Origin: an uncultured virus (IMG/VR IMGVR_UViG_3300033405_000010)
Taxonomy: Duplodnaviria > Heunggongvirae > Uroviricota > Caudoviricetes
Length of the DNA stretch: 64,000 bases
Direction: 5' to 3' (one strand)
Virus record (IMG/VR): IMGVR_UViG_3300033405_000010
The notes under the pieces were generated by a model. That model was not told where the DNA came from. It worked only from the letters and a program-made list of their open reading frames with translations, and made no database searches. The translations under genes and the position numbers were made by a program. How positions within the stretch are numbered: position 1 is the first letter of the stretch; the number at the start of each line of letters is the position of its first letter. Positions 3,816 through 53,441 of the stretch are shown piece by piece.

Positions 3816-3918
3816 CGTGGGTACCTCGGCGGTCCCACCCGAGCCGTGGTATTTGAAGGAAAATCAGCGCGCTAGCCGGCTGCGGGTTCAAATACCGTCA
3901 GCCGGATGGGACCGGACG

Positions 3919-4164: not shown

Positions 4165-4202
4165 CCTCAGTCTTAAAGCCCGACTCGTGTGTGAGCCCTT
4201 CG

Positions 4203-18560: not shown

Positions 18561-18754
18561 GCCGTCACCACCTCGATTCGGACGATGGGTCGCATCGGCA
18601 TGAATGGGTTCCCGATGATGGTCAGCTTCTCCTCGAACTCGACCGTGACGGATTCCCCTTCCTTGACGGTCGGCGCGTCCCATCCGTTCTCCTGGTCCCG
18701 GGCCAACATCAACGGTGGCGAGTTCTCCCCCGTGAGCGTGACCTTCAGTTTCAT
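18557..18754 (-). CDS. Small beta-rich hypothetical protein
   Basis: MKLKVTLTGE..., ATGA overlap with the TROVE stop. Confidence 0.6.
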   Translation of the reverse strand: MKLKVTLTGENSPPLMLARDQENGWDAPTVKEGESVTVEFEEKLTIIGNPFMPMRPIVRIEVVTA

Positions 18755-36591: not shown

Positions 36592-37173
36592 CTACGCGGG
36601 CTCCCAACGGCCGCCCATGTGGACGCCCTTCTCGACCACGTCGGGGTTCCACTTGCCACGGACCCACTTGCCGTCCACGAGGAGTTCGGCCTTCTCCCGG
36701 TCGGCCTGCTGGTACCGGCGCTTCCCGTGCTTGCTCGTCTCCGTGACCCAGTAGTACGGATGGCGCCGAGCGTAGCCGATGCTGCCGCCCCACACGTCGC
36801 AGGTCTTGTCGCAGGCGGGGTCGGCGCAGCCGGACTGGCCCATCTCCCCGTAGCGGGGACCGAGGAAGTGCCCGGCGTAAAAGTGGGTGGCCGGGCGGAC
36901 GAGGCAGTATCGGCACTGCCGACCCTCGTCCTTCAGGCCCATCGCCTTGTAGAGCGCGGTGGCGTTCTCGCTGAGTTGCGCCTGGATGGCGCTCTTGGCA
37001 GTCCGCATCGGGTCGAGCGAGCCGTCCTTCGGGACCATGTAGGTGTTCGGGTCGTCGCCGCGGCTCTCGAAGTACCGGTGGGCCCACAGGTAGGCGGAGA
37101 GGAGCCTCCGATGCTCGTCCCACAGGATTTTCAGACCGTACTCGCGCTGCTGCTTCTTCGTCCACGGCTTCAT
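36592..37173 (-). CDS. Hypothetical protein
   Basis: Coupled to the NADAR gene (ATGA overlap). Confidence 0.7.
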   Translation of the reverse strand: MKPWTKKQQREYGLKILWDEHRRLLSAYLWAHRYFESRGDDPNTYMVPKDGSLDPMRTAKSAIQAQLSENATALYKAMGLKDEGRQCRYCLVRPATHFYAGHFLGPRYGEMGQSGCADPACDKTCDVWGGSIGYARRHPYYWVTETSKHGKRRYQQADREKAELLVDGKWVRGKWNPDVVEKGVHMGGRWEPA

Positions 37174-37625
37174 CGTCGCAACTCCGCTCGAACCCGCATG
37201 AGAATCTGACCGAGGTGGTTTTCCCCTTTCAAGGTGCCCGCCTCGTTCTCGACCATGCCCCAGTACCTGTCGCCCCAGTCGTTGCCCTCGATGAGCACGG
37301 CATCCCCGGTGTCGAGCAGCTTCTGGCGCAGGTCGGCATGGCGGAGGAACTTCGCCTGCACGACGGCGTACATAATGGACCGTCGGACTTCGAGCCAGTC
37401 AAGCCGCCGCGCCGCGCGCCGCCCCATCCGCTTCGCCTCGCCCGGCGTCTTGGCCCTCCGGATGGCCTCCTTCACCTCGGGGTCGCCGGTCTTGGCGGCC
37501 TGGTAGGCGTGCTCGGCCGTCGGGTAGAGCTTCCCACCGTACGGCACGTCCGCCTCGTAGAAGTTCGAGAGAAAGTGGTAGTCACCACGGAACCGGGTGA
37601 TGGCCGGGACCGCGGCAGCCTCCAT
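37170..37625 (-). CDS. NADAR (YbiA-like) ADP-ribose hydrolase / N-glycosidase
   Basis: FLSNFY, TAEHAYQAAK, KF..H, LL.TGD..LIE, DRYWG, GENHLGQILM.VR. Confidence 0.93.
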   Translation of the reverse strand: MEAAAVPAITRFRGDYHFLSNFYEADVPYGGKLYPTAEHAYQAAKTGDPEVKEAIRRAKTPGEAKRMGRRAARRLDWLEVRRSIMYAVVQAKFLRHADLRQKLLDTGDAVLIEGNDWGDRYWGMVENEAGTLKGENHLGQILMRVRAELRR

Positions 37626-37645
37626 GATTAGGCTCAGGTAGCGTG

Positions 37646-37658
37646 ATATATAAATAGG
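37646..37658. promoter_or_regulatory. Bidirectional TATA-like element between the NADAR and ART-like genes
   Basis: ATATATAAATAGG, the only AT-rich island in the spacer. Confidence 0.65.
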
Positions 37659-37704
37659 TCGCGGCGGCGCGGGTCTTGAATAGTCCGGGCCTCCTGGCCT
37701 CAGG

Positions 37705-38400
37705 GTGCGGCTGACTCCCCAGCAGGTCCTCGTCATCGACGCCCTCTCGCGCCGCGTCAACGAGGTCGCCGACGAACGCTTCCAGGAGTTCCATCAGCAG
37801 ACGCAGGAGGGCTTCCGCAAGCTCGCCGAGATGGACCCGAAGCTGAAGGAACAGTACGCGAAGGCCGGGACGACCATCGAGGAGGCGCAGCAGCACGAGA
37901 TGGACATGCCCTTCCAGGAGGGCTACTCCGGGCTCCGCTCGTTTCTCCTCCAGGGACTTCGGCCGCAAATCAAGGAGCAGTGGGTCCGTTACAACCTCGT
38001 CCCGTTGGTCGACGCGATGCAGCCGACCTGGTTCCAGCATGGGAAGTTCAACAAGCTCCCCGCCGACCTCAAGCCCGCCGTCATGCAACTTGCGACCTTC
38101 GAGCGCGACGAGCCGATGCTCATCTACCGGGAGCAGCCGCGCTTCCTCGACACGAAGGCCGGCCGGACGTTGAAGTGCGAGCGCCCGGTCTCCTGGAGCG
38201 CCTCGGAGAAGGCCGTCATGGGCGAGACCACGCTCATCTGCTCGACCCGCTACGGCACGAACGTCTCCATCCTCTCCCAGTACATCGGCGAGGGCGAGGT
38301 CATCTCGTTCAGCAAGGCGGGCTACCTCGTGACCCAGGTCGAGGACCGTTCGTTCATGGGGCGGCGCACCCGACGGGTCGTGCGGCTCCGCGACCGTTAA
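37705..38400 (+). CDS. Putative ADP-ribosyltransferase (R-S-E type)
   Basis: LIYR ... VSWS ... GEGEV in the expected order. Confidence 0.6.
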   Translation: MRLTPQQVLVIDALSRRVNEVADERFQEFHQQTQEGFRKLAEMDPKLKEQYAKAGTTIEEAQQHEMDMPFQEGYSGLRSFLLQGLRPQIKEQWVRYNLVPLVDAMQPTWFQHGKFNKLPADLKPAVMQLATFERDEPMLIYREQPRFLDTKAGRTLKCERPVSWSASEKAVMGETTLICSTRYGTNVSILSQYIGEGEVISFSKAGYLVTQVEDRSFMGRRTRRVVRLRDR

Positions 38401-38467: not shown

Positions 38468-38541
38468 GGGCGCGTCGCATAGTGGTCTTGCTCCAGCCTT
38501 ATAAGCTGACGTAGACGCGAGTTCGATTCTCGCCGCGCCCA
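38468..38541 (+). tRNA. tRNA-Ile(UAU)
   Basis: GGGCGCG/CGCGCCC acceptor; loop CT-TAT-AA; TTCGATT T-loop. Confidence 0.85.
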
Positions 38542-38554
38542 TTCGCATCGCAAC

Positions 38555-38625
38555 GGGCCCGTCGTCTAACGGCAGGACACCATTCTGATAAATTGGAGAA
38601 GGGGGTTCGACTCTCCCCGGGCCTA
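38555..38625 (+). tRNA. tRNA-Ile(GAU)
   Basis: Cloverleaf; loop CT-GAT-AA; one U-U pair in the anticodon stem. Confidence 0.85.
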
Positions 38626-38675
38626 CCTCTCCATCGACCTAGGGCTCAAATAGCGTCAACCGGGTGGAGGAGACG

Positions 38676-39284
38676 ATGTCGTCGGCTGTTGATACGCCCG
38701 GCGGGGGAGCGGGGGAGAGGGCCGTTGTTTCGCCCGGGCCCAGCCTGGCTGCAAAGGGGAACGTGAGTGCCCATCTGAACCTCGTGTGCCGTGACGCGGA
38801 CGGTAAGGTCACGAGCACGTTCGACAAGGAGTGCGACATGACGCTGCTCCAGTCGGCGCAGTTCTTTGTCGTCAGCCAGCTCAACGTCTCCGGGCTGTCC
38901 TTCAAGGACACGAGCGGGGCGTCGCACGCGCAGACCGCGCAGGTCCTCGCGGGCACCCCGGCCATCGCGTTCGGCACGAACGGCACCGCGGCGACGTGGT
39001 CCGACTACGTCATCGGCACGTCGGCCGGCGGCGCCACCAACCCGGTCGGCGCCTCCGTCACGGCCATCGTCGCGGGCGGCGCGAGCGGTACGTTCACCGT
39101 CACCGCGACCTGGAACAACACCACGGCCGGAACCGTCACCATCACCGAGCTTGCCCTCTACATCACGACGACGGCGGGCATGGCGAGCAACTCGACCTTC
39201 GCCATCACCCACGACGTCTTCACGGGTCAGGCCGTCTCCGCGAGCGGAACCGCCGCGGCGACCCTCACCTACACCTGGAGCTGA
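38676..39284 (+). CDS. Putative virion protein (Thr/Ala-rich, beta)
   Basis: GGAGG upstream; TITELALY, TLTYTW. Confidence 0.7.
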   Translation: MSSAVDTPGGGAGERAVVSPGPSLAAKGNVSAHLNLVCRDADGKVTSTFDKECDMTLLQSAQFFVVSQLNVSGLSFKDTSGASHAQTAQVLAGTPAIAFGTNGTAATWSDYVIGTSAGGATNPVGASVTAIVAGGASGTFTVTATWNNTTAGTVTITELALYITTTAGMASNSTFAITHDVFTGQAVSASGTAAATLTYTWS

Positions 39285-39286
39285 AC

Positions 39287-39589
39287 ATGCCGCACAAGGC
39301 CATCCCCGCAGAAGCCCCGAGCCTCCCCCCCGAAGCGTGGACCGGTTCGGCCCCCGCCCCAGTCGACGGCGCCACCGGACGGAAGTTCGCGTGGACGAAG
39401 GTCGCGGGGACGGCGGTCGCCGCGACCCAGACCGAGGACGGCTCCATGAAGGGCAAGGCGATTTGGCGCATCACTGCCGACTGCCCGAAGTGCTCGGACA
39501 CCATCTCCATCATCGGCTCGACGGAGCACGGCGACGCCCCGGTGCGTTGCTACTGCTCTCCCGCGCGCGTCTTCCTGGTGACCTGGTGA
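39287..39589 (+). CDS. Small zinc-ribbon protein
   Basis: CPKC...CYC. Confidence 0.6.
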   Translation: MPHKAIPAEAPSLPPEAWTGSAPAPVDGATGRKFAWTKVAGTAVAATQTEDGSMKGKAIWRITADCPKCSDTISIIGSTEHGDAPVRCYCSPARVFLVTW

Positions 39590-39590
39590 G

Positions 39591-39947
39591 ATGGCTTACA
39601 ATCCGGACTTCCAGCAACTGTTCCCGGGCTCCGAGGAAGACTACATCGGTCTTCCGCCGGACTCCACCGGCAAGAAGATGCGAACGCGGCTGTGGATTAT
39701 CTTCGACCCTGTCGTGGGCGCCTACAACTACGAGGAGGCCGAGGTCGTTCACCTCGGCGACCCGAACGCGCCGAACAACCTCGCCTACGTCAGCAACCTG
39801 GGCGAGCTTCACGTCGACCCGTACCAGCAGCGGGCGATGCAGGAGGAGATTTTCCTCACGCAGTTCGACCGACGTTACACAGAGGATGTGGTCAAGGTTC
39901 AAAAGGCCCGGGAGTATCTCCGGACCGGGACGTCCATTCGACGGTGA
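39591..39947 (+). CDS. Hypothetical protein (virion-associated?)
   Basis: LPPDSTGKKMRT motif; within a structural-like operon. Confidence 0.7.
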   Translation: MAYNPDFQQLFPGSEEDYIGLPPDSTGKKMRTRLWIIFDPVVGAYNYEEAEVVHLGDPNAPNNLAYVSNLGELHVDPYQQRAMQEEIFLTQFDRRYTEDVVKVQKAREYLRTGTSIRR

Positions 39948-39958
39948 GGTGGTGAAAG

Positions 39959-40618
39959 ATGGTTCTAGCGGAAGGCGTCGTTGGTGAGCAGCAACTGGGC
40001 ATCGGTTCTCCGGGCGCGGCCCGTATGGACCAGCAGGGCGGCGTCGTGGCCGCGAACGACCACGGATGGCGCTTCACCGGCAACTACAACAACCGTCTCT
40101 ACACGGTGGCGAACCAGTCCGTGCAGGCGCTGACCCTCATCGGCGCGACGACGTACACCGGGCTCGCGCTCTGGAATCCCCCGGGGTCCGCGGTCATCGC
40201 GTCCGTCGACGAGTGCACGGTCAACGTGGCGACGCTGCCCACGGCGGCGGCCGCCATCCTGCTCTTCGAAATCACGAGCACCCCCTCCGCGTTCACCACG
40301 GCGCAGGTCACCTACGCCGCGAAGGTGCAGCCGTCCATCCAGGGCTCGTCCAACGCCTCGAAGTGCGCTGGCTACACGGCCCTCACCCTGGCGGCGGCCC
40401 CCGACGCTGCCACCGCGCCCATCATCCGGGCGCTCGCGTCCTACCTCGGCGTGACCACGGACGCCACCTCCATCCAGGGCGTCGTGACGAAGGCCATCGA
40501 GGGCAGCATCATCCTCGAACCCGGCACGGGCGTCGGCATCGTCGCCGCCACCACCGCCATCACCGTCATCGGGTCGTTCACCTGGGAAGAACTGCCCCTC
40601 TCCATCTACCCCGGATAG
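39959..40618 (+). CDS. Putative virion protein, paralog A
   Basis: TGLALWNPPGS, IILEPGT, FTWEE. Confidence 0.8.
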   Translation: MVLAEGVVGEQQLGIGSPGAARMDQQGGVVAANDHGWRFTGNYNNRLYTVANQSVQALTLIGATTYTGLALWNPPGSAVIASVDECTVNVATLPTAAAAILLFEITSTPSAFTTAQVTYAAKVQPSIQGSSNASKCAGYTALTLAAAPDAATAPIIRALASYLGVTTDATSIQGVVTKAIEGSIILEPGTGVGIVAATTAITVIGSFTWEELPLSIYPG

Positions 40619-40630
40619 GGAGGACGAGAC

Positions 40631-41293
40631 ATGGTGCTGGTCGAGGGCGTCGTTGGCGAACAACAGCTTGGCATCGGTTCGCCCGGTGCGTTCCGTCTCG
40701 ACCAGCAGGGCGGCATCATCTACGTCAACGACCACGGGATGCAGTTCACCACGAACTACAACAACCGTCTCTTCAACGTCGCCCATCAGGCCGCGACGGC
40801 GTTATCGCTGGCGTCCACCACGACGTACACCGGGCTCGCGCTCTGGAATCCGCCGGGGTCCGCCGTCATCGCATCGGTCCTGGAGGTCACGGCCACGGCG
40901 AACGCGATGCCAGCCGCCGCCGCCCTCATCGTCCTGTTCGAAATCACGACAACCCCTACGTTCGGCACGGCGGTGGTGACCTACGCCTCGAAGGTCCAGC
41001 CCAACATCCAGGGCTCGTCGAACGCCTCGAAGTGCGCTGCCTACGCGGGACTGACGCTGACCACGGGCGCGAACCCTGGAACGGCGACGGCCCCCATCAT
41101 CCGGGGAGTGCAGTCCTACCTGGGCATCACGACCAACGAGACGGAGCTTCAGGACAACGCGACGAAGGCGCTCGATGGCTCCATCATCCTGGAGCCCGGA
41201 ACGGGCGTCGGGATGGTCGCGGTCACCACGGCGGTCACCGTCTTCGGGTCTTTTACGTGGGAAGAGCTACCCATCTCCATCTTCCCCGGGTGA
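40631..41293 (+). CDS. Putative virion protein, paralog B
   Basis: Full-length tandem duplicate of 39959-40618. Confidence 0.8.
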   Translation: MVLVEGVVGEQQLGIGSPGAFRLDQQGGIIYVNDHGMQFTTNYNNRLFNVAHQAATALSLASTTTYTGLALWNPPGSAVIASVLEVTATANAMPAAAALIVLFEITTTPTFGTAVVTYASKVQPNIQGSSNASKCAAYAGLTLTTGANPGTATAPIIRGVQSYLGITTNETELQDNATKALDGSIILEPGTGVGMVAVTTAVTVFGSFTWEELPISIFPG

Positions 41294-41298
41294 GCAAC

Positions 41299-41532
41299 AT
41301 GGCGGAGCGCGAGATACCAGAGGGCGACATCCAACGGACGCAGACGGTCGTCTTCACGAAGCTCGGCCCCGGCCGCTACCGTTTCGCCGTCCGCGGCGAC
41401 TTCTCCTCCGAGGAGTTGACCTTCGCGCTCGACCAGCTCAAGGCGGTGCTCCAGGGCGTGGCGACCCACGTCGGACGGACCTCCACCACGCTCGCCCCGA
41501 CGGTCGAGCCACCCCCGGCCGCCACACATTAG
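41299..41532 (+). CDS. Hypothetical protein
   Basis: Start MAEREIP; typical codon bias. Confidence 0.55.
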   Translation: MAEREIPEGDIQRTQTVVFTKLGPGRYRFAVRGDFSSEELTFALDQLKAVLQGVATHVGRTSTTLAPTVEPPPAATH

Positions 41533-41552
41533 CGCCTCGGAGGTAGACTCCG

Positions 41553-43931
41553 ATGGCGGATGCGTGGAAAATCTGGGACCTCACCGGCTATGAGTACTTC
41601 GTCAGCGGCGCGGAGTTCGTAGCCGAGGTCGGAGTCGCCTACGCGGGGGCCCGTGGGGTCGGCACCGAGCTAATCGCCGAGACCTACAGCCTCGTCGTCT
41701 CCGAGAAACCTACCGGCGTCGAACTCGTCAGCGAAACCGGCGTTTCGGTCACGTCCGAGAAGCCCACCGGCGCGGAGCACGTAGCCGAGGCCGGCGTCTC
41801 GGTCACGTCGGAGAAGCCCACTGGCGCCGAGCACGTTGCTGAATCCGGCGTATCCGTCACCTCTGAGGTAGTCGTCGGCGCGGAGCACGTAGCCGAGGCC
41901 GGCGTTTCGGTCACGTCGGAGAAGCCCACCGGCGCGGAACACGTCGCCGAAACGGGAGTCTCTGTCACGTCGGAGAAACCGACGGGTGCTGAGCACGTCG
42001 CGGAGGTCGGCGTTTCGGTCACCTCCGAGGCCCCTACTGGCGCAGAGCACGTAGCCGAGACCGGCGTCTCCGTCACGTCGGAGAAGCCCACTGGCGCGGA
42101 ACACGTCGCCGAGGTGGGGGTCTCGGTTACGTCGGAGGCGCCCACCGGCGCGGAGCACGTCGCCGAAACGGGCGTCTCGGTGACGTCGGAGAAGCCCACC
42201 GGCGCGGAACACATCGCGGAGACGGGTGTCTCCGTCACGTCGGAGAAACCGACGGGTGCTGAGCACGTCGCGGAGGTCGGCGTTTCGGTCACCTCCGAGG
42301 CCCCTACTGGCGCAGAGCACGTAGCCGAGACCGGCGTCTCCGTCACGTCGGAGGTTGTCGCCGGTGCGGAGCACGTCGCTGAGGCCGGCGCGGCTATCGG
42401 CAAGAACCCGGTCACCGGGACCGAGCAGGTCTCCGAGACCGGGGTCTCCGTCACGTCGGAGAAGCCCACCGGCGCGGAGCAGGTTTCTGAGACCGGCGTT
42501 GCCATCGGCACGTCGGTCGTTTCCGGTGCGGAGCATGTCGCGGAATCCGGCGTCTCCGTCACCTCGGAGAAGCCGACCGGAACGGAGCAGGTCTCCGAGA
42601 CCGGGGTCTCGGTCACGTCGGAGAAGCCGACGGGAGCCGAGCACGTCGCCGAGGTCGGTGTCTCGGTCACCTCGGAGGTAGTCACCGGGGCGGAGGCCAT
42701 CACTGAGACGTCCTACGTGGTGGTATCGGAGAAGCCGACCGGCACCGAGCAGGTCCAGGAGACGTTCAGCATCGTCTACTCTCAGGCCGTCCAGGGGACC
42801 GAGACCGTCTACGAGACGGGCGTGGCCGGCGCCGGGTTCAAACCGGTCGGCGAAGAAGCGGTCAACGTACACGGTGTCATCACGACCAGCATCGGCCTGC
42901 CCGTACTGGAAATCGTCGGCGAGGCGGGGGTCGTCTTCGTCCCGTCCCGCCCGACAGGCGCCGAGGCGGTCGCCGAGGTCGCAACCTCCCAAGTAGTCAT
43001 CCCCGTCACGGGGGCCGAGGAGGTCCAGGAAACCGGCACCGCCTTTGCCGGGGCGGTCGCCACCGGCACGGAGGCCGTCTCCGAGACCTTCGAACTCATC
43101 GTCTCCGAGTATCCGAAGGTCTCCGAGTTCGTCACGGAGTTCGGGCGCGCCGTCGCATACGGCGCGGCCACCGCCTACGGCCGCATCGCCGAGGTCGTCG
43201 GCCTGACGGTCTCCGGCCCGGTCTCCGGCTCCGGCACCATCTTCGAGTCGGGCATCGTCCAGACCGGTCACTTCGTCACCGGCACGGAGGCCGTGGATGA
43301 GGTTGCGAGTCTGAAGGTCGCCAGCGGAATCGCCGGCGCGGAGGCCATCCTCGACGCGGCGAATCTCGTGGTCTCCGTCCGGCCCGCTGTGCAGGGCACG
43401 GTCGGAGAGACCGCGACGCTCGTCGTCGTGAACCCGCCCCGACCCTCGGGCGGAGGCGGTGGAGGCGGTGGCTACTACCCCTACCAGTACGACCGGTGGC
43501 CCGCCGAGACCCAGGCGTACTTCGACCAGACCATCGGCAACATGGAACGCTCCTACGTCAAGCGGAACTACCCGCCGGCGTACATCCTGGTCCAACCCCC
43601 CGAGCAGGCGGTCTCCGAGGCCATCGCGTTCGCCGAGCCGCCCACGGCCATGCCAGCCGTCAGCGGAACGGCCATCCCGACGTGGGCGATTGCGCTCGCG
43701 GGTGTCGCCGTTGGCGCCGCGGCCACCATCGGAATCCTGTGGGCCGCCTCGCGCTGGAACTTCGGGCCGCGCCCTCGCCCGCAGCCACCTGAGGGCCCTG
43801 CGCCGCGGCCACTCCCTCCCAGGACGAACCCACGGAAGAAGCGCCGCCCGCGGGGCCGGCGGGCTCGGCAAGCCCTTCCGAAGGTCGCGCTGAAGCGGCG
43901 CAGGTCTTATCAGACCGGAGCCGGATGGTAG
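41553..43931 (+). CDS. Membrane-anchored 18-aa tandem-repeat stalk protein
   Basis: About 20 conserved EKPTGAEHVAETGVSVTS repeats; C-terminal TM helix and basic tail. Confidence 0.85.
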   Translation: MADAWKIWDLTGYEYFVSGAEFVAEVGVAYAGARGVGTELIAETYSLVVSEKPTGVELVSETGVSVTSEKPTGAEHVAEAGVSVTSEKPTGAEHVAESGVSVTSEVVVGAEHVAEAGVSVTSEKPTGAEHVAETGVSVTSEKPTGAEHVAEVGVSVTSEAPTGAEHVAETGVSVTSEKPTGAEHVAEVGVSVTSEAPTGAEHVAETGVSVTSEKPTGAEHIAETGVSVTSEKPTGAEHVAEVGVSVTSEAPTGAEHVAETGVSVTSEVVAGAEHVAEAGAAIGKNPVTGTEQVSETGVSVTSEKPTGAEQVSETGVAIGTSVVSGAEHVAESGVSVTSEKPTGTEQVSETGVSVTSEKPTGAEHVAEVGVSVTSEVVTGAEAITETSYVVVSEKPTGTEQVQETFSIVYSQAVQGTETVYETGVAGAGFKPVGEEAVNVHGVITTSIGLPVLEIVGEAGVVFVPSRPTGAEAVAEVATSQVVIPVTGAEEVQETGTAFAGAVATGTEAVSETFELIVSEYPKVSEFVTEFGRAVAYGAATAYGRIAEVVGLTVSGPVSGSGTIFESGIVQTGHFVTGTEAVDEVASLKVASGIAGAEAILDAANLVVSVRPAVQGTVGETATLVVVNPPRPSGGGGGGGGYYPYQYDRWPAETQAYFDQTIGNMERSYVKRNYPPAYILVQPPEQAVSEAIAFAEPPTAMPAVSGTAIPTWAIALAGVAVGAAATIGILWAASRWNFGPRPRPQPPEGPAPRPLPPRTNPRKKRRPRGRRARQALPKVALKRRRSYQTGAGW
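41670..42760 (+). repeat. 54-bp coding tandem repeat
   Basis: Recurrent GAGAAGCCCACCGGCGCGGAGCACGT-like units. Confidence 0.9.
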
Positions 43932-43946
43932 GCCGACGGAGCCCTG

Positions 43947-44723
43947 ATGCCGACCATAACAAATTGGGCCGTTGGGTCGAGTGACACCGGAACGACAAGC
44001 GTTGACATCACCTGCACCACCGGGGAGTCGGTCTACGTCTTCGTCGGCGGCGACGCGACCGGAGGCATCGGCCCGAGCGCGGTCACGGACGACCAATCGC
44101 CGCCCAACGTCTACACGCGCATCGACGGAAGCAACATCCAACAGGGCACCAGCACCGTCTGCCTCTTCGCGTACTACTGCGACAACGTCCAGTGCCCCGG
44201 GGGCAGTCTCAACGTCACCGTGACGATGGGTGCGCTGAACTTCACGGGCATCGTGTCCGCCGCCGCCCTCAGCGGGACCGTCACCCCCTCCCTCGATGCG
44301 TTTGCCCTTTCCACAAGGATGACGGGGACCGGCGCTGTCCAGGCCATCGGCCCGTGCGACCTCGGCATTACCCAGGGCGGCGAACTCGCCTTCGTCTTCG
44401 CTGTTGCCGGCGACAGTGCCGCGTTCCTGCCCGGCGCTCAGACCCTCTCTCCACCGCTCACCGGCGGGACCGAGGTGATGGACACGGATGCGAACGGTTT
44501 TTACGACCTCGTTGTCGCGTACGACCCGAACCCAATTCCCGGGAGGATGGCCTACAACGGCACCTCGAACGAGGGCGCAGCGAATGGCGTCGTTCAGATG
44601 ATGGGCGTGAGCATCATGGGCCCGCCAGTCGTCGCCGGCACGACCAACACGAACCCGCTCTCCTACTACGGCTACTCCCCCGAGACGATGTTCGGGTTCC
44701 GGCAGGAGCCGACCGAAGGGTAG
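43947..44723 (+). CDS. Beta-rich putative virion/adhesion protein
   Basis: 258 aa, Gly/Thr-rich. Confidence 0.65.
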   Translation: MPTITNWAVGSSDTGTTSVDITCTTGESVYVFVGGDATGGIGPSAVTDDQSPPNVYTRIDGSNIQQGTSTVCLFAYYCDNVQCPGGSLNVTVTMGALNFTGIVSAAALSGTVTPSLDAFALSTRMTGTGAVQAIGPCDLGITQGGELAFVFAVAGDSAAFLPGAQTLSPPLTGGTEVMDTDANGFYDLVVAYDPNPIPGRMAYNGTSNEGAANGVVQMMGVSIMGPPVVAGTTNTNPLSYYGYSPETMFGFRQEPTEG

Positions 44724-44828
44724 CACCCATTAAATCCCGGGACGCGCGTAGCGGATTCGCCATGCGGTTCGGGCGAACGCGATGTACTACCTGTCCCGGC
44801 ACACCGGGTCGGTAGACCATTCGCCCCT

Positions 44829-44903
44829 GCCGCTCTAGTTCAATCCGCAGAATCCCGGTCTTGTAAATCGGGGATGCCGGTTCAAATCCGACGAGCGGCT
44901 CCA
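44829..44903 (+). tRNA. tRNA-Thr(UGU), CCA encoded
   Basis: Cloverleaf; loop CT-TGT-AA. Confidence 0.88.
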
Positions 44904-44904
44904 T

Positions 44905-44975
44905 GCCGCTGTAGGATAACGGCAGTCCAGGACTTTCGTAAAGTCCGAGCGGGGGTTCGACTCCCTCTAGCGGCT
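44905..44975 (+). tRNA. tRNA-Thr(CGU)
   Basis: GGACT/AGTCC stem; loop TT-CGT-AA. Confidence 0.88.
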
Positions 44976-44976
44976 T

Positions 44977-45047
44977 GCCCCAGGGGCAGGTCGGATACGC
45001 GACGGTCCGCAAAATCGTCCAAGAGGGTTCAACTCCCTCCTGGGGCT
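44977..45047 (+). tRNA. tRNA-Cys(GCA), atypical
   Basis: Loop CC-GCA-AA; U73; weak D arm; G8. Confidence 0.75.
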
Positions 45048-45054
45048 CTCACAT

Positions 45055-45125
45055 GCCACCGCAGTTCGGCGGACGAATCCCAGCATGGTAAGTTGGGGAT
45101 GCGGGTTCAACTCCTGCCGGTGGCT
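45055..45125 (+). tRNA. tRNA-Thr(GGU)
   Basis: Loop AT-GGT-AA; C8. Confidence 0.83.
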
Positions 45126-45160
45126 CTATATTTATATATCGGAGAGACCTAATCGTCTCT

Positions 45161-45240
45161 GCCGGGCGGCTATGAAAGCAGCCTCTGAGGGGCTCGACAC
45201 CCTCTTGGGTCGCGGAGGGGTCGAGCCCTCCCCGTTCGGC
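45161..45240 (+). ncRNA. Putative tRNA-like structured RNA / leader of the RNA ligase gene
   Basis: Starts about 25 nt after TTTATATA; 9-bp closing helix with G-U pairs; three internal hairpins. Confidence 0.45.
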
Positions 45241-45257
45241 TGCTCGATTGAGGAAAG

Positions 45258-46340
45258 ATGCCGACACTCCTGACGCGCGAGGAGTTCCGCGAGGCGGTCT
45301 TCGAACGCGATGACAAGACCTGCGTCGTCCCGGGCTGCGGGTACGCCCAGGAGGTCGAGGCAGGCCACGAGGTCGAGGTCGTCGCTCACCACATCATCGA
45401 GCGACGGCTCTGGACCGCCGCGGGCGAGGAGGCCGGTTACTTCGTCGAGAACGGCGCCACCCTCTGTCCGTTCCACCACCTATGGGGGGCGGAAACCTGC
45501 ACGCTTCAACCCGACGTCCTCCGCTACTGGGCCGAAATCGAGGACGTCGTCCTGCCGTCCGGATGGGACCCGGCCCAACGGTACGACAAGTGGGGCGTCG
45601 TGCTCAAGCAGCCGAACCGGGAGCGCGTGAAGTACCCCTCCACGCCGTACCTCCCCATGAGCCCGGGCGTGGAGGAGAACGACATCAACCTCCCCGACCT
45701 GAAGCCGTTCGTCCACCAGCCGCTCTGCATCACCATCAAGATGGACGGCGGCAACACGCTCCTGACGCGCGACCTGGTCGCGGCGCGGAACGGACACTCC
45801 GCGGACCACGCCTCGTTCGACTGGCTGAAGGCGGCACACGCCGGGTTCGCTAAGCAAATCCCCGAGGGCGTCCAAATCTTCGGAGAGAACCTCTACGCGC
45901 GGCACTCCATCCACTACACCGGGAAGCTCCAGCTCGACTCGCTGTTCATGGTCTTTGGCGTCTACGACCAGAAGGAGCAGATGTTCGGCTCCTGGCCGCA
46001 CGTCGTGCAGGCCGCGAAGCTCATCGGCTTCCCGACGGTCCCGGTCCTGGAGTACGGGAAGGAGTACCCGAACGAGGATGCGCTCCGCGTCCGGCTCTTC
46101 CGCCTCGCCAACGACGTCATCAAGCGCGGCCACGAGGGAATCGTCGTCCGCCTCGCGTACCCGTACGTGTTCGGGATGCACGAGGGTTACGAAAGTCGTA
46201 ACTCCAACAGCGGAGAAACATGGCGCGTCAACGCCATAGCTAAGTACGTCCGCGAGGGCCACGTCCAGAGCGAGGAGCGGTGGGACCACGTCCCCATCGT
46301 CAAGAACGAGGTCAAACCGGGGAAGCCGTTCCAGCGGTAG
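45258..46340 (+). CDS. HNH-like domain fused to an RNA ligase (nucleotidyltransferase) domain
   Basis: VFERD..CVVPGC...AHHIIER...NGATLC..HH; KYPSTPYLP, KMDG, FGEN, FGV, HEGIVVR, KYVR. Confidence 0.88.
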   Translation: MPTLLTREEFREAVFERDDKTCVVPGCGYAQEVEAGHEVEVVAHHIIERRLWTAAGEEAGYFVENGATLCPFHHLWGAETCTLQPDVLRYWAEIEDVVLPSGWDPAQRYDKWGVVLKQPNRERVKYPSTPYLPMSPGVEENDINLPDLKPFVHQPLCITIKMDGGNTLLTRDLVAARNGHSADHASFDWLKAAHAGFAKQIPEGVQIFGENLYARHSIHYTGKLQLDSLFMVFGVYDQKEQMFGSWPHVVQAAKLIGFPTVPVLEYGKEYPNEDALRVRLFRLANDVIKRGHEGIVVRLAYPYVFGMHEGYESRNSNSGETWRVNAIAKYVREGHVQSEERWDHVPIVKNEVKPGKPFQR

Positions 46341-46348
46341 GCGTTGCG

Positions 46349-47185
46349 ATGACCTGGGATAGCTACCCCCCCGCCATCCATCAAAAGGCGTTGGACCTGT
46401 ATTCGAAGGGCAACACGGCGAAGCAGGTTGGAATCACATTACAGCTTCCCAAGTCTACCGTTCTCCTATGGGTCCATCGGGCAGGACTGCCAAGCCATAA
46501 GCCGAAAAGGAAACTCTCCAACCGGGAGCTTCGTCAGGCCCACGCGGAGTACATCAACGACCGTCTCTCCGCCGAAGCAGTTGGCCGCAAGTACGGGATG
46601 TCGCTGGCCGGAATCCTGAAGAGCTTCAGACGTGCCGGCCTTCGAATCCGTGGGCACGGAGAGAGCCTCGAACTCGATGAATGGACTGCTTCATCCGCCG
46701 TATCGTTCTACAGACATGGACTGTCCGTAGAGGCCACCGGACGACGACTGGGCATTAGCCCCAGCGCCGTCAACAAACTGGCTCACGCGGCCGGGGTCGT
46801 ACGGAACCGGTACGAAACTCGTCGGCGCGTTCGACCCGCGGTGAGGGAACAGTTCTGGAGGATGGTTGAAGCGGGAAGGACGAAGGCAGCAGCCGGCCGC
46901 ACTCTCGGGCTGAGCGCACAGCAGACGTGGAATCTCGTACGGTCGTCTAGGGCCAAGCCCAGCGAAAATAACCGCGCGGGAGGCGGGCTCAACGTTACGG
47001 ACAGGGCGGCTGTGGAGTCTGCCCACCGGGACTATGTTGAATCGGGCGACAGTCTCAAGCGAGTCGCAGCGCGGCATGGATTGTCGGCGACCGGCCTGAC
47101 CTGCGCGTTTCAACGTCTGGGTCTGCCCACCCGGTCTCCCAAGGAAGCGCAACGCCTCCTCGCCAGGAAGCGTTTGATGCCCTAG
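46349..47185 (+). CDS. Multi-HTH repeat DNA-binding protein
   Basis: About five LY..G.S...V...LG-type units; weaker codon bias than its neighbours. Confidence 0.75.
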   Translation: MTWDSYPPAIHQKALDLYSKGNTAKQVGITLQLPKSTVLLWVHRAGLPSHKPKRKLSNRELRQAHAEYINDRLSAEAVGRKYGMSLAGILKSFRRAGLRIRGHGESLELDEWTASSAVSFYRHGLSVEATGRRLGISPSAVNKLAHAAGVVRNRYETRRRVRPAVREQFWRMVEAGRTKAAAGRTLGLSAQQTWNLVRSSRAKPSENNRAGGGLNVTDRAAVESAHRDYVESGDSLKRVAARHGLSATGLTCAFQRLGLPTRSPKEAQRLLARKRLMP

Positions 47186-47258
47186 TGGACCCCCCGGGAC
47201 TCGAACCCGGAATCTCCCACATGCCAAGCGGGTGCGTTTCCGATTGCGCCAGGAGCCC
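47186..47258 (-). tRNA. tRNA-Ala(GGC)
   Basis: Cloverleaf with G3:U70. Confidence 0.9.
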
Positions 47259-47310
47259 GAGTTCCTAGTAATCGCGCAGGTTCAAATATCTGCGGGTGCA
47301 TCCCGTGAGC

Positions 47311-47381
47311 AGCGGGATACCACGAAGGTCGTGGGCCGGCCTCATAAGCCGGGAGCCCAGGTTCGATTCCTGGTTCCGCTA
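47311..47381 (+). tRNA. tRNA-Met(CAU) (A1:U72, initiator-like acceptor)
   Basis: AGCGGGA acceptor; loop CT-CAT-AA; lacks the full GGG/CCC anticodon-stem signature. Confidence 0.85.
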
Positions 47382-47436
47382 TCCGCCGATGGCGCTCACG
47401 AGGAGACGAGGGAAAGTCGGTCGACACGCCGGCGAT

Positions 47437-47511
47437 GCCCTCGTACCTTAGCCTGGACAAAGGAGCCGCCTTCTAAGCGGTGCGTCGTGAGTTCGAATCT
47501 CACCGAGGGCG
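47437..47511 (+). tRNA. tRNA-Arg(UCU)
   Basis: Cloverleaf; loop CT-TCT-AA. Confidence 0.92.
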
Positions 47512-47517
47512 TTCGAC

Positions 47518-47588
47518 GCGCCCGTGGTCTACCGGCATGACGCCACGTTGCCAACGTGGCAGAGCGAGTTCAACTCTCGCCGGGCGCA
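47518..47588 (+). tRNA. tRNA-Gly(GCC)
   Basis: GCG acceptor; loop TT-GCC-AA; A73. Confidence 0.92.
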
Positions 47589-47752
47589 CTGAACGTCCGA
47601 AGTTCGAGGTCATCGTCCGCCGCCCTGGACTCGATGGGTCGTACGCGCTGGGGCCATTCACTCGCCGACGGGCGGCGGAGGTCGTCGCGCTCCTGAAGAT
47701 GCTCACGTTCCCTCCGGACGAGTACGAAATCCGTCCGCTTCCCCCGCTCAAA

Positions 47753-47824
47753 CGCCGCGGGCAGGAGTCGAACCTGCGAACCTCCGGTTAACAGCCGGGC
47801 GCTTAGCCGTTCAGCTTCCGCGGC
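47753..47824 (-). tRNA. tRNA-Asn(GUU)
   Basis: Loop CT-GTT-AA; G73; A8. Confidence 0.88.
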
Positions 47825-47834
47825 AAATGTGAGG

Positions 47835-47908
47835 TGCGGACGCCGGGATTTGAACCCAGACCGTCGGCTTGGAAGGCCGTCGTGCTGCCGGATTGACACC
47901 ACGTCCGC
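47835..47908 (-). tRNA. tRNA-Gly(UCC)
   Basis: Loop CT-TCC-AA. Confidence 0.92.
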
Positions 47909-47909
47909 A

Positions 47910-47981
47910 TAGCCCGAGAGGGAGTCGAACCCCCGCCGAGAACTTGTAGGGTTCCCATGCTCGCCGTTACACCACCGGGCT
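47910..47981 (-). tRNA. tRNA-Val(UAC)
   Basis: Loop CC-TAC-AA (C33). Confidence 0.85.
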
Positions 47982-47992
47982 GTCGGAGTGAA

Positions 47993-48064
47993 TGGACCTG
48001 GCGCGAGTTGAACGCGCAATTCGGAGTTGCGGGCTCCGGAGGTTTCCGATTACCGCACAGGCCC
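47993..48064 (-). tRNA. tRNA-Ala(CGC)
   Basis: G3:U70; loop CC-CGC-AA (C33). Confidence 0.85.
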
Positions 48065-48201
48065 ACGCCCGACGCCCGGTCCCCGATTCGTGGGACCGAG
48101 TTCGGCTACTGCTGCTGCGGCCTCCTGCCGTGCGTGCGCCATTACCCCACCCACGCTCGCACTAGTTCTTAATTCCTCGCTCGTGGGTGGAGGGGCCTGA
48201 T

Positions 48202-48621
48202 ATGAGCTTCCCCAAGGTTCGACTGAAGCACCCACCGCCCGTCCGCCCGAATCCGGAGGAGATGAAGCCGCCCAAGGCCGCGGTCGACCTGCCGCTCGAA
48301 GTCGTACTCCCCGAGAAGATTTACATGGTGACGGAGGCGAACATCCGCGTCCCGCAGGAGGTTCCCGCGGTCTACGAAGACCCGCTCGGACCTGGGCCCG
48401 GCGCCGACCCGAAGACCTACCAGCGGTTGGCAGCCTACCGTCGCGGATGGGTGGACGCGCTCCAGTCGCTGGCCCGGGAACTCGGCTACGAATGGGAGGA
48501 CCTCATCCAGGTCGGTCAGGAGGAGGACAACATGGAGCGCGATGCGCTCATCGACCGCATCGTCAAGCGCCTCCGCGCCGAGAACGAAATGGTCAGCGGG
48601 TTGTCCGCGCTCTTCGGTTGA
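48202..48621 (+). CDS. Hypothetical protein
   Basis: GGAGG upstream; typical codon bias. Confidence 0.7.
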   Translation: MSFPKVRLKHPPPVRPNPEEMKPPKAAVDLPLEVVLPEKIYMVTEANIRVPQEVPAVYEDPLGPGPGADPKTYQRLAAYRRGWVDALQSLARELGYEWEDLIQVGQEEDNMERDALIDRIVKRLRAENEMVSGLSALFG

Positions 48622-48623
48622 GG

Positions 48624-48695
48624 GGCCTCCGCCGAGGGTTGAACTCGGCCCCGCGGCTTCACAGACCGCTGTGCACCCGCTACACTACGGAGGCC
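48624..48695 (-). tRNA. tRNA-His(GUG)
   Basis: Encoded G-1 and C73; loop CT-GTG-AA. Confidence 0.9.
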
Positions 48696-48713
48696 ACGCG
48701 AATGGGTTCTCCA

Positions 48714-48785
48714 TAGCCCCGCCCGGAGTCGAACCGAGTTCTGCACTTTCAAGGAGTGCCGAGATTGCCGTCTCTCCCCGGGGCT
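48714..48785 (-). tRNA. tRNA-Gln(UUG)
   Basis: A1:U72; loop CC-TTG-AA (C33); G8. Confidence 0.85.
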
Positions 48786-48787
48786 GC

Positions 48788-48864
48788 TGGTAGCCCCGGG
48801 AGGATTCGAACCCCCACAATCCTCGGCCAGAACGAGGTAGCCTTTCCGATTAGCCAACGGGGCT
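48788..48864 (-). tRNA. tRNA-Gln(CUG), CCA encoded
   Basis: A1:U72; loop TT-CTG-GC. Confidence 0.88.
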
Positions 48865-51006: not shown

Positions 51007-51294
51007 ATGGCAGCCCCTGGCTCAGTCCTCAGCAACGTCGTGACGGTGACAGAAGCAGCGGCCCCGTTCACCATCGCCATCACCGCGACCCCGCTCACGC
51101 TCCCGTACACGGGCGGTGCCGTCACCATCCTAGTGACGACCAACCTCCCCGATGGGACGACCCTCAACCTACTGGCGAACGGCGCTCAGATTGACAGCAC
51201 CACTTCGACTGGCGGAGCGGCGGCTTTCACGGAAACAGTCGCGGCCAACACCACGACCACGGCGATTTCGATTGCCTATCAGGTCACGAACTAG
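51007..51294 (+). CDS. Stand-alone copy of the peptidase B C-terminal beta domain
   Basis: Shared TGG.V...TTNLPDGTTLN.L.NG...VTN. Confidence 0.75.
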   Translation: MAAPGSVLSNVVTVTEAAAPFTIAITATPLTLPYTGGAVTILVTTNLPDGTTLNLLANGAQIDSTTSTGGAAAFTETVAANTTTTAISIAYQVTN

Positions 51295-51303
51295 GCTCGG
51301 CCG

Positions 51304-51510
51304 ATGGCCGTCGCGTCCAACGTCGTGACCGTGACGCTGGAAGCCGGGCCGGAGTCCGACCGGCAAATCCTGCTGCGGGTCATCCACCTGCTGCGGAACA
51401 TCGCGCGCTACATCCGTAACCACCCCGAGGACATCGACCGGGCGAAAATCCTGGAGGCCCTGGACAAGGTCGAGGAAGTCCTCAAGCGGTTGGCCGATAG
51501 CGAAGGATAA
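51304..51510 (+). CDS. Small hypothetical protein
   Basis: Shares SNVVTVT with the upstream gene. Confidence 0.6.
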   Translation: MAVASNVVTVTLEAGPESDRQILLRVIHLLRNIARYIRNHPEDIDRAKILEALDKVEEVLKRLADSEG

Positions 51511-52609
51511 CGCCGAGGCCCCCGAAGCCCTTCAGGAACTCCGCGCCCGACGCGCCCTCCTCAGCGAGGAGGTGCACCGGCACGCCCTGGCCCACGGCGA
51601 CATCCACCACGTCGTGGAATCGGGAGTCGACGCCTTCGTAGAGGACGAGCGCGCTCGCGCGCCGCTCTTCGAGGGCCCGCAGCACCTCAGCATGGCCGTA
51701 CTCGGCCAGCCCCTGGCGCACCGCATCTGCGAACTTCGTCACTACGATTTGGTCCTTTTGTAGTGACAAATGTGCGAGAAGGTCTCCCGCGGAGCGGACC
51801 AACTCCTGGAGCCCGAACTCGTTGGTGTAGCTGACGTCCACGAGCGGGCGGAGAACCTTCCGGACCAGGCGGTAGTCCATAAACTCACCTTCCGCCCACT
51901 GACGCTTTGTGTCCCCGGGTCCGCCGATGAGCACCCCGTCCAGCCTGTCGACCTGGTCGAGGAACGAGCGGTTCGCCATGTCCCCGATTTTCACGAAGAA
52001 CTCGTGCGCCGCCTGCTCCGTCTGCCGTTCCCACCGGTGCTGGGACTGGCCTCCCGCGTCGTGCTTCGGCGGGACGTGGCTCTCCTTCGAGTCCAACTCG
52101 ATGACCCGCGAGCCGCGGAGGAGCCCGAGCGTGACCTCCTTCCGGTCGAGGACGATGAGAGCGTACTGTGCCTTATCCTCCAACTGCTCGCGCAGCGGGT
52201 CGAGCATGAACTTCGGACCGCAGAAGTAGACCTCCCGAAGGAATGGCTCGGACGGCTCCACGACACGGACCGATTCGGGGCTCGCGTAGACGGCGAGGCC
52301 GTTCGAGGGAGTAAAGCGGTACTGACGCAGGGTCGAGAGGACCTTCTGGAGGGAGTCAAGGACGCCCATCCGCGTGGTGCGGCTCTTGATGTTCGCCGCC
52401 TGGGTCAGTTCGTCGGCGATACGCTTCTGCGCGTCGAGGATGTTGCGCGTGGGCGGCAGGACAAGCGAGACCAGTTCGGTCGCCCGTCCCTCCTCCGACT
52501 CAAGGTCGTGGAGGAGGCGGCGGAGTCAGATGCGACCGCGGGCGTCCGTGGCGTCGGGAGGCATCCCGGGCCCTTTGGCGGAGCCCTGCCGATTCGGCTC
52601 TGAACTCAT
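51482..52609 (-). CDS. prf1: Archaeal-type class-1 peptide chain release factor (aRF1) with in-frame UGA at 52526-52528
   Basis: One frame: MSSEPN...RGRI*LRRLLHDLESEEGRATELVSLVLPP...AANIKS...YFCGPKF...AGGQS...GFGGLGVILRY. Confidence 0.88.
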
Positions 52610-52678
52610 CGTTCCTGTGCCTCCCGATTCAGGATGGCCCTCGCAATATATAAATATCACCGGGCCGATGGTCGAGTA

Positions 52679-52793
52679 GGCACGGCCGCGGTCCGCAAGG
52701 CAACAAAGGTAGGTTCGACTAGTAGCTCCAAGCCGAGTCGAGCGGACCGAGAGGAGGATGGGCTCCGCGGGGCGGCTCCTCCGAAGCTGTGCC
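52679..52793 (+). ncRNA. Putative three-way-junction ncRNA divergent from aRF1
   Basis: GGCACGGC/GCTGTGCC, CGGTCCGC/GCGGACCG, TCGACT/AGTCGA and GAGGAG/CTCCTC helices; starts about 23 nt after TATATAAATA. Confidence 0.5.
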
Positions 52794-52835
52794 CGCCCCC
52801 ACGCTCTTATAGCGAGAGGTGGGTAGCGCCGGCCG

Positions 52836-53441
52836 ATGGCGTCTCTCAGTCGCTTCAAGGATTACGCTCTCGCCGCAGGTGTGATTGCCGCCCTGATTCT
52901 CGGGGGCATCGGAACGTATGCTTACGCGAACCCGGGCACACACCAGACGAACACCGTGAACACGGTTTGGGACAATCAGACCATCCAGCACAACTCGACC
53001 GTCTATCGCAACACGACGGTCAACACGACGACGCCGATTTGGCACAACACCACGGTCTGGGTCAACACGACGCACTGGGACAACACGACCAACACGGTCT
53101 ACCGCAACAGCACGGTCTACGTCAACACGACCATCATCGAACTCATCCCGGTGGTCAACGTGACGGGCATCTTCGTGAACTACACGAACGCCACGCTCGG
53201 CGTCAACGCGACCGTGCCGATTCCCGAGAACTACTCGCTCCCGGTCGGGACGGTGACCTGGGTCCTCGTGACTGTCAACGTGACCAAGTGCTGCCCGCAG
53301 TACGACATCACGGTCAACGCGCCCTGGGTCCTGCTCTCCGACCGCGACTGCTCCACGCCTGAGACCATCACGGTCGACGTCCTGCTGGGCGTTCCGTACT
53401 GGCCCGGGACCTACCCCATCGACCTGACGGTGTCGAAGTGA
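52836..53441 (+). CDS. Membrane-anchored, N-glycosylation-sequon-rich surface protein
   Basis: N-terminal hydrophobic helix; 15 NxT/S sequons in 201 aa. Confidence 0.8.
   Translation: MASLSRFKDYALAAGVIAALILGGIGTYAYANPGTHQTNTVNTVWDNQTIQHNSTVYRNTTVNTTTPIWHNTTVWVNTTHWDNTTNTVYRNSTVYVNTTIIELIPVVNVTGIFVNYTNATLGVNATVPIPENYSLPVGTVTWVLVTVNVTKCCPQYDITVNAPWVLLSDRDCSTPETITVDVLLGVPYWPGTYPIDLTVSK

Follow-up and report, generated by a model that had tools for sequence, protein, structure and literature searches.

The gene for a class-I peptide release factor of the archaeal type (aRF1), carried by an uncultured virus or virus-like element, is interrupted at codon 28 by an in-frame TGA. It occupies positions 51482-52609 of the minus strand in a stretch of 64,000 nucleotides (nt) recorded as IMG/VR IMGVR_UViG_3300033405_000010, the whole of which is here called the window. 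Judging from the comparison of related sequences, the internal stop is real and conserved and lies within coding sequence, and the sequence behind it, without a canonical start codon, is translated in frame. Among the mechanisms considered, readthrough of the UGA has the best support, and autoregulation is a plausible hypothesis. On balance, we favor programmed readthrough, probably sensing the activity of release factors as in Mimivirus R726 or bacterial prfB.

An in-frame stop codon near the beginning of aRF1

A single frame runs down the minus strand from 52609 to 51482, consisting of an ATG with 26 further sense codons, a TGA, 347 sense codons, and a terminal TGA. Its translation, MSSEPNRQGSAKGPGMPPDATDARGRI*LRRLLHDLESEEGRATELVSL...NIKS...GGQ...RPTA*, contains one internal stop. 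The pertinent features are these:

52647-52654, minus strand: TATA box TTTATATA in the promoter of aRF1, with the same GATATTTATATATTGCG also upstream of the gene in the related loci L001 and L002
52620-52625, minus strand: GGGAGG, Shine-Dalgarno-like as read from the sequence, 10 nt before the ATG
52529-52609, minus strand: 5' segment of 27 sense codons, from the ATG (52607-52609) up to the internal stop
52526-52528, minus strand: internal TGA, codon 28, in the context ATC TGA CTC (AUC UGA CUC); candidate readthrough site
52489-52517, minus strand: possible hairpin, not significant, in which CCUCCUCC (52510-52517) pairs with GGAGGAGG (52489-52496), 8 nt after the UGA
52370-52525, minus strand: start-less segment, 52 codons after the stop without ATG, GTG, or TTG, encoding helix 1, the GRATEL loop, and NIKS
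52382-52393, minus strand: NIKS, inside the start-less segment
51485-52369, minus strand: open reading frame (ORF) of 295 residues, comprising the remaining N domain, the M domain, and the C domain; the product reported by gene callers (P0001)
52046-52054, minus strand: GGQ, in the M domain of aRF1
51482-51484, minus strand: terminal stop of aRF1, TGA-G

The first ATG, GTG, or TTG downstream of the internal TGA is the ATG at 52369 that opens the 295-residue ORF, and for this reason gene callers report a protein of that length, lacking NIKS. An earlier, sequence-only reading of this DNA had described the same layout (the 295-residue ORF, the upstream frame, the TGA, the ATG, GGGAGG, and the TATA element), and every part of it was found in place. 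It had also held that no ATG, GTG, or TTG separates the stop from NIKS and that the functional motifs are intact. Both claims stand, for the 52 codons, NIKS included, are free of start codons, and NIKS, GGQ, and Y-x-C-x-x-x-F are all present in the translation. If the stop is read through, the peptide expected at the junction is ...DARGRI-X-LRRLLHDLESEEGR, where X is the residue inserted at UGA.

At the far end of the gene, the C-terminus ...LRYRPTA* is identical in the window and L002. A convergent ORF of 68 residues (51304-51510, plus strand) overlaps the final 29 bases of aRF1, and the high conservation in L002 of the DNA past the end of aRF1 agrees with coding on the opposite strand.

Allowing at most one mismatch, 15 copies of TTTATATA were counted in the window where 1.03 would be expected, and none of 100 shuffles gave as many; it is therefore probably an archaeal-type promoter box of this element. 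The leaders of the window and L002 genes are separated by a 65-nt indel, and an in-frame ATG is kept in both. Since the L002 leader has no GGGAGG and its ATG lies only 22 nt downstream of the TATA box, the L002 mRNA is probably leaderless.

Conservation of the stop and of the sequence that follows it

Six peat metagenome runs contain the window stretch. The internal TGA is covered, with 0 differences, by contigs from three runs other than that of the window:

X3, record 1: 51400-52740
X4, record 4: 52137-52800
X5, record 11: 52421-52576

The contigs of X6 do not span the stop. Contigs rather than raw reads were compared at 52528, a level at which rare variants would not show. Three further assemblies, identical at the stop, rule out a sequencing error, one of the two mundane explanations that the sequence-only reading had entertained.

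The other, a recent mutation from CGA to TGA, is ruled out by the relatives. L001 and L002, two metagenome contigs that do not differ from each other in the part read, encode an aRF1 with 74% protein identity and 86% DNA identity to that of the window, at a synonymous divergence (dS) of 0.65. Their gene begins ATG GAC GCT GCG TCT CGC TTG TGA CTC CGC, with an in-frame ATG 7 codons ahead of the stop and TGA-CTC at the codon matching that of the window. In the seven codons ahead of the stop, the two genes are homologous with each other (TDARGRI in the window, MDAASRL in L002) and with the N-termini of other aRF1s. A third locus, L063, has a stop two codons away. The 52 codons behind the stop are under constraint. 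Between the window and L002, they differ by 11 synonymous and 6 nonsynonymous changes, a ratio of nonsynonymous to synonymous divergence (dN/dS) of 0.165, equal to that of the remaining N and M domains (0.165). In the two alternative frames of the segment, the ratio exceeds 3. The C domain is relaxed, with a dN/dS of 0.555. Synonymous divergence is 0.33 in the first 52 codons against 0.68 later, a difference that is suggestive and rests on 11 changes. The 42 bases following the TGA are identical in the two genes, and this is unexceptional, because overall DNA identity is 86%.

The predicted protein

Taken across the stop, the gene evidently encodes a complete if short (~375 residues) archaeal class-I release factor, whose activity in peptide release is a prediction. 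All three Pfam domains of the family are matched in the read-through protein above curated cut-offs (eRF1_1, 4.1e-06; eRF1_2, 7.3e-35; eRF1_3, 5.3e-09), and the match to eRF1_1 begins 3 residues past the stop. The motifs GRATEL, ANIKS, YFCGPKF, and HDAGGQSQHR are present. In an alignment of 50 sequences, the invariant residues include N73, I74, K75, Y128, C130, F134, G186, and G187, while T44, E45, and Q188 are nearly invariant. The window protein has local departures, the S before NIKS being replaced by A and the D of YxCDxxF by G, so that its stop-recognition motifs read QAANIKS and YFCGPKF where cellular proteins have QSSNIKS and YRCDSTF.

The homology extends upstream of position 28. By phmmer, the read-through protein can be aligned with the Halobacterium aRF1 (4af1) from residue 23 onward and with human eRF1 from residues 17-18. 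The stop itself aligns with the Glu of YEF, a position occupied by E, S, or M in other aRF1s, and the relative P0004 can be aligned directly across it (MEDVERLM-LKR with TDARGRI*-LRR of the window). An AlphaFold2 model, made from 50 aligned sequences with the TGA read as W, has a mean pLDDT (predicted local distance difference test) of 86.8. In it, residues 1-16 are disordered, and residues 23-38 form the first helix, spanning position 28. The top match of the model in Foldseek is the same Halobacterium aRF1 (E 7.3e-34; template modeling score 0.83). Homology and constraint thus reach across the stop, and the sequence-only reading appears to have been right that full-length protein requires its decoding, the stop lying inside ancestral coding sequence.

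Distribution of interrupted aRF1 genes

Twenty-one aRF1 loci were examined for a stop near the N-terminus. One was found at the same site in L001 and L002 and beside it in L063; the other 18 have none. An in-frame Met lies a few codons upstream in 17 of these 18, and the last, L009, which shows no Met over the stretch read, probably has GTG or TTG as its start codon, like records such as P0005.

L063 lies on a 128-kilobase (kb) metagenome contig with 38% G+C, and its short aRF1 is 34% identical to that of the window. The gene consists of an ATG, 45 codons, TGA CAG, and then an aRF1 body of 359 residues. The stop is two codons upstream of the position equivalent to that of the window, and no start codon follows it for 22 codons, until a TTG within the conserved SLYIP strand. 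It is the sole in-frame TGA seen among the approximately nine genes of the locus. A tRNA-Trp(CCA) gene (2998-3072) lies ~900 nt upstream of the L063 aRF1; a Hirsh-type A24 in this tRNA was considered and rejected, position 24 being an ordinary G. At the end of the DNA read, a methyltransferase-like ORF (3-746) has an in-frame TGA five codons from the edge and no Met for ~80 codons thereafter, and it lies too near that end to interpret.

In the phylogenetic tree, the window, L002, and P0003 group with the pair L077 and P0059 and with P0004 in a clade that has full support. L063 forms a long, unresolved branch. Neither the joining of L063 to this six-member clade (P value of the approximately unbiased test, p-AU, 0.67) nor a clade of stop-bearers only (p-AU 0.105) is rejected, and it is possible that the TGA arose once and was then lost in some lineages, or that it arose twice.

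Among cellular genomes, an aRF1 match was found in 375 of the 401 Thermoplasmata genomes searched, a tally that includes three genomes flagged as unpublished (G101, G215, and G305), which contribute to this count alone. All six of the Thermoplasmata loci inspected have ordinary starts, and in the three inspected rows flagged as having one TGA, that codon comes shortly before the ATG. Second matches, in 5 genomes, are fragments at contig ends and one frameshifted pair. One cellular Thermoplasmata aRF1 (L184/L178, G307:C181:7961-8898) appears to consist of two abutting pieces in different frames, perhaps because of a frameshift or an assembly error. Ordinary starts are found too in two further mobile-element copies of aRF1. 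A scan of the viral_contigs set with the window protein and a tblastn search of the phage collection returned no relative, and P0113 and P0117, used in turn against viral_contigs, gave no match.

Other interrupted genes may have been hidden by annotation. Among the best 150 of 2037 representatives, several aRF1 calls are truncated at the N-terminus. P0113 begins at VPP. P0117 begins at the M of TEMVTLY, and the identical call of 326 residues appears on three contigs (P0117/P0257/P0258), as does the 298-residue call of P0127 (P0127/P0260/P0261). P0059 and P0003 are truncated calls as well. P0219, 58% identical to L063, starts at the same TTG-encoded L, on a contig of only 1368 nt. Lacking the N-terminal helix or NIKS, these short proteins (P0003, P0113, P0117, P0127, P0059, and P0219) hint at further interrupted genes.

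Readthrough as the favored mechanism

According to the model we favor, translation would begin at the ATG at 52607-52609 or, in L001 and L002, at the probably leaderless ATG 7 codons before the stop. On reaching the UGA at codon 28, the ribosome would usually be terminated by release factor, yielding a peptide of 27 residues. In a fraction of passages, a near-cognate tRNA would decode the UGA instead, and full-length aRF1 would be made. Because termination and readthrough compete at the UGA, output should track the activity of release factors: high total activity, from host and element together, would give less aRF1, low activity more, and the result would be a self-limiting supply of the factor. 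No frameshift is needed, as the frame of the upstream ATG is that of aRF1, and near-cognate readthrough is implied by the lack of any dedicated tRNA or element among those found. The near-cognate decoding, the identity of the inserted residue, and the feedback on the level of release factor are all inferred.

Several considerations weigh against this account. First, the sequence-only reading had relied on UGA-C as a leaky context, and this part of its argument finds no support in this genome. The +4 base is indeed C at all three stops (window, L001/L002, and L063). However, TGA-C is the commonest genuine stop tetranucleotide in the window, ending 11 of 56 ORFs (none of them TGA-CT), and so +4 C cannot by itself mark a stop as leaky. 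Second, shuffle tests gave no significant sign of a stimulatory RNA structure in the window, whether over 101 nt (z -1.42) or for the window hairpin (z -1.92, with 6 of 200 shuffles folding equally well). The hairpin of CCUCCUCC and GGAGGAGG is identical in L002, and the corresponding values for the relatives (-1.54 in L002; -1.42 in L063, for a different hairpin) are not significant either. Nothing known explains why this UGA should be read through more than others. Third, two members of the clade, L077 and P0004, start in the ordinary way and have no stop, from which it follows that the stop is not needed for function. Fourth, programmed readthrough by near-cognate tRNAs is not known from Archaea; in the available portion of a 2021 review of archaeal recoding (PMC8211752), only selenocysteine (Sec) and pyrrolysine (Pyl) are named as cases in which archaeal stop codons are redefined. 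Fifth, the window represents 64 kb of a contig of perhaps ~98 kb, and a suppressor tRNA or other factor may lie beyond it. Finally, self-feedback would require that the window aRF1 recognize UGA.

Alternatives to sensing by readthrough

Perhaps the UGA is only a constitutive attenuator. Readthrough would then serve to hold a potentially harmful factor at a low yield, from a few percent of initiations, with no feedback of any consequence, as would be the case, for example, if the window aRF1 did not act on UGA or if it always made up a minor share of release-factor activity. We consider this unlikely, even though it has the best standing among the alternatives: all the evidence for readthrough applies to it equally, and the departures of QAANIKS and YFCGPKF from the cellular motifs make an altered codon specificity possible. 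Against it, any stop that competes with release factors must respond somewhat to their level, and a weak promoter or start would be a simpler route to low expression. Moreover, internal stops recur in release-factor genes (prfB, Mimivirus, the clade of the window, and L063), which is the pattern to be expected from sensing.

A second possibility, to which we give rather less credence, is that the UGA merely ends a short upstream ORF, of 27 codons in the window and 7 in the relative, and that aRF1 is made by reinitiation or from a non-canonical start just downstream. Coupled termination and reinitiation is common in archaea where genes overlap or abut. Furthermore, the mobile-element aRF1 of L079 begins only 9 residues before the G-x-x-T-E-L loop, and so helix 1 may be partly dispensable. 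But reinitiation would find no in-frame ATG, GTG, or TTG for 52 codons in the window and L002, or for 22 in L063, and L002 has just one GTG nearby, which is in another frame and runs into a stop after 9 codons. Nor would an upstream ORF need either of the properties that this one has: the residues before the stop are homologous to the N-termini of aRF1s, and the frame is kept in three different leaders.

It is improbable that UGA is here a sense codon, decoded through a dedicated tRNA or a variant code (of the host, of a part of the element beyond the window, or of a stage of infection), with the gene uninterrupted in vivo. Phages with recoded stops that carry release factors are known, only 64 kb of the element is visible, and in L063, with its tRNA-Trp(CCA) 900 nt upstream of aRF1, none of the approximately nine genes ends in TGA. 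However, the 56 coding-like ORFs of the window end in TGA (27), TAG (21), or TAA (8), and ORFs as long as 1272 residues contain no TGA. With TGA an ordinary stop in the window, a variant code is unlikely, and the code appears to be standard. A scan of the window for in-frame stops between coding-like sequences found otherwise only abutting genes, with a start codon at most 7 codons away. None of the 17 tRNAs in the window has the anticodon UCA. The L063 tRNA-Trp is normal (G24, CCA), and Trp in L063 is TGG. On peat contigs of matching G+C that bear a cellular, Thermoplasmata-type aRF1, genes end in TGA, and these include some of the aRF1 genes themselves.

Very little speaks for a gene that is decaying or inactive, or that provides only the N-truncated product of 295 residues from the ATG at 52369, without elements for stop recognition. 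The gene callers do give only this ORF (P0001, P0002), and the C domain is relaxed. But all motifs are intact, and the dN/dS of 0.165 applies to the very 52 codons that lie upstream of that ATG. No Shine-Dalgarno-like motif was read before it, and its Met is Ser in P0003 (68% identical), so it is not a conserved start.

The insertion of Sec is hardly credible, UGA being its codon notwithstanding: the protein is not a redox protein, and the position is variable (E, S, or M) and belongs to its first helix, which is exposed to solvent; Rfam gave no match up to an E-value of 1 within 51100-52900 (though it may contain no archaeal model of the selenocysteine insertion sequence); and a tRNA-Sec model, unspecific in that it matched in all 14 control genomes, exceeded its cut-off in just 2 of the 151 Thermoplasmata genomes sampled.

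The element that carries the gene

The window is tightly packed and has 65% G+C. Its genes encode a PrimPol-D5 primase-helicase, RecT, two ParB-like proteins, two DNA methylases, a SNF2 helicase, and a DUF5131 protein, along with the following:

18751-20322, minus strand: Ro60/TROVE protein with a vWA domain
37170-37760, minus strand: NADAR domain protein
45258-46340, plus strand: RNA ligase

Seventeen tRNA genes lie in four clusters (38468-48864), and their order is conserved in L001/L002, downstream of aRF1. They include a tRNA-Ile(UAU). A predicted tRNA-Cys(GCA), not called by Rfam, has the anticodon loop CCGCAAA, with C at position 33 for the usual U. At its gathering score, Rfam found only tRNAs in the whole window and no Y-RNA-like family. 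Together with the tRNAs and aRF1, the Ro60/TROVE protein, the RNA ligase, and the NADAR protein look like a set for RNA repair and the maintenance of translation.

The sequence-only reading had called the gene viral. The genes for replication and mobility and the 17 tRNAs agree with this, but no capsid, portal, or terminase was matched in the window (43 ORFs searched with PHROGs and 61, 25 plus 36, with Pfam), and for that reason virus status is plausible and not shown. The relative L077 lies on a contig of the IMG/VR collection. Two long ORFs may encode structural or tail proteins: one of 1272 residues (3906-7724, plus strand), which matches no PHROG and no Pfam family, and one of 792 residues (41553-43931, plus strand), which matches no PHROG and, in Pfam, only PF02512 (2.6e-06, residues 337-370). 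The closest cellular aRF1s, at 35-43% identity, are those of Thermoplasmata, and the carrier is best read as a virus-like mobile element of peat Thermoplasmata with archaeal promoters.

Comparison with known systems

Release-factor genes containing a stop that must be passed if the factor is to be made are textbook examples of feedback in translation, and until now they have come from bacteria (prfB) and two giant viruses. In bacterial prfB, which encodes RF2, an early in-frame UGA-C is passed by a +1 frameshift when the activity of the factor is low. The window gene resembles prfB in having an early in-frame UGA-C in a gene for a release factor; in prfB, the factor itself reads UGA. The two differ in that prfB shifts by +1 on CUU UGA C with the aid of an upstream Shine-Dalgarno-like stimulator, whereas the window gene stays in the same frame, with no shift, and encodes a protein of an unrelated family. 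A frameshift of the prfB type was rejected for the window, since the frame of the upstream ATG is that of aRF1 and the +1 frame does not encode aRF1.

The comparison with the eRF1 genes of giant viruses, which the sequence-only reading had invoked, proves apt. Mimivirus R726 and Megavirus mg280 have a UGA-C readthrough stop in the release-factor gene, readthrough of R726 has been shown experimentally in E. coli, and a tRNA-Trp has been proposed to read the UGA of the Mimivirus gene (Jeudy et al. 2012, PMC3521657). As in those viruses, a factor of the eRF1/aRF1 type is borne by the element, a conserved in-frame UGA followed by C lies in the 5' part of its gene, to be read through, and the stop is kept between diverged orthologs. 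In both cases it is the sole recoded gene seen, and it can be read as buffering the level of release factor. The giant-virus genes have in addition a frameshift at a second stop, eukaryotic hosts, and proteins in a separate, deep clade, while the window gene has a single stop and an archaeal promoter, involves no frameshift, and encodes a protein that nests close to the aRF1s of Thermoplasmata. At true gene ends, UGA-C is rare in Mimivirus and commonest in the window. Finally, readthrough in Mimivirus is experimental, and in the window it is proposed from sequence.

In plants, the level of an eRF1-family factor is also controlled via the readthrough of a stop codon, in the eRF1-1 circuit (PMC5397192, as far as the consulted portion describes it). 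The stop there is the terminal one, coupled through the 3' untranslated region to nonsense-mediated decay, not an early internal one. In Archaea and their viruses, the recoding events covered in the sections consulted of the 2021 review (PMC8211752) are the insertion of Sec and Pyl, -1 frameshifting, and one suggested +1 frameshift; -1 frameshifting is described for fucA and for some haloarchaeal tailed viruses (PMC8211752, PMC8037382, likewise in part). Like the putative readthrough of aRF1, the insertion of Sec or Pyl is a context-dependent redefinition of a stop, but it uses dedicated tRNAs and machinery, none of which was found in the window. A literature search yielded no report of an archaeal virus with a release-factor gene of its own, nor of termination factors next to tRNA arrays and RNA-repair genes in archaeal viruses or plasmids, although such papers may exist outside its coverage. 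In a 2021 survey of the tailed viruses of archaea, release factors come up solely as targets of a methylase partner.

With the cellular aRF1s of Thermoplasmata, the window protein shares the three eRF1 domains, NIKS, GGQ, and YxCxxxF; it lacks the zinc-ribbon insert and a loop of the N domain. The cellular genes start normally and have no internal stop, whereas the window copy sits on a mobile element beside tRNA arrays. In its shortness and the absence of the zinc-ribbon insert from its C domain, it resembles the solved crenarchaeal aRF1 of Aeropyrum (3agk, 373 residues).

If programmed readthrough is correct, then the same solution arose on a factor of the archaeal/eukaryotic type in a prokaryotic setting, and the gene is a first candidate for readthrough in Archaea that is independent of Sec and Pyl. 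The ~60 nt around the UGA would offer a compact sequence for asking what makes an archaeal stop leaky. It would appear too that viruses or plasmids of archaea have genes for termination factors next to tRNA arrays and genes for RNA repair, and that gene callers, by systematically truncating such aRF1 genes, have hidden them. A wider generalization can be offered only tentatively, its failure being slightly easier to imagine than its success: that mobile elements of Archaea evolved aRF1 genes gated by an early UGA, perhaps repeatedly and perhaps widely, providing both the first near-cognate readthrough in Archaea and a third independent circuit by which a release factor senses itself. Circuits of this kind are already known from prfB and the giant viruses; no earlier one from the archaeal domain would precede this instance.

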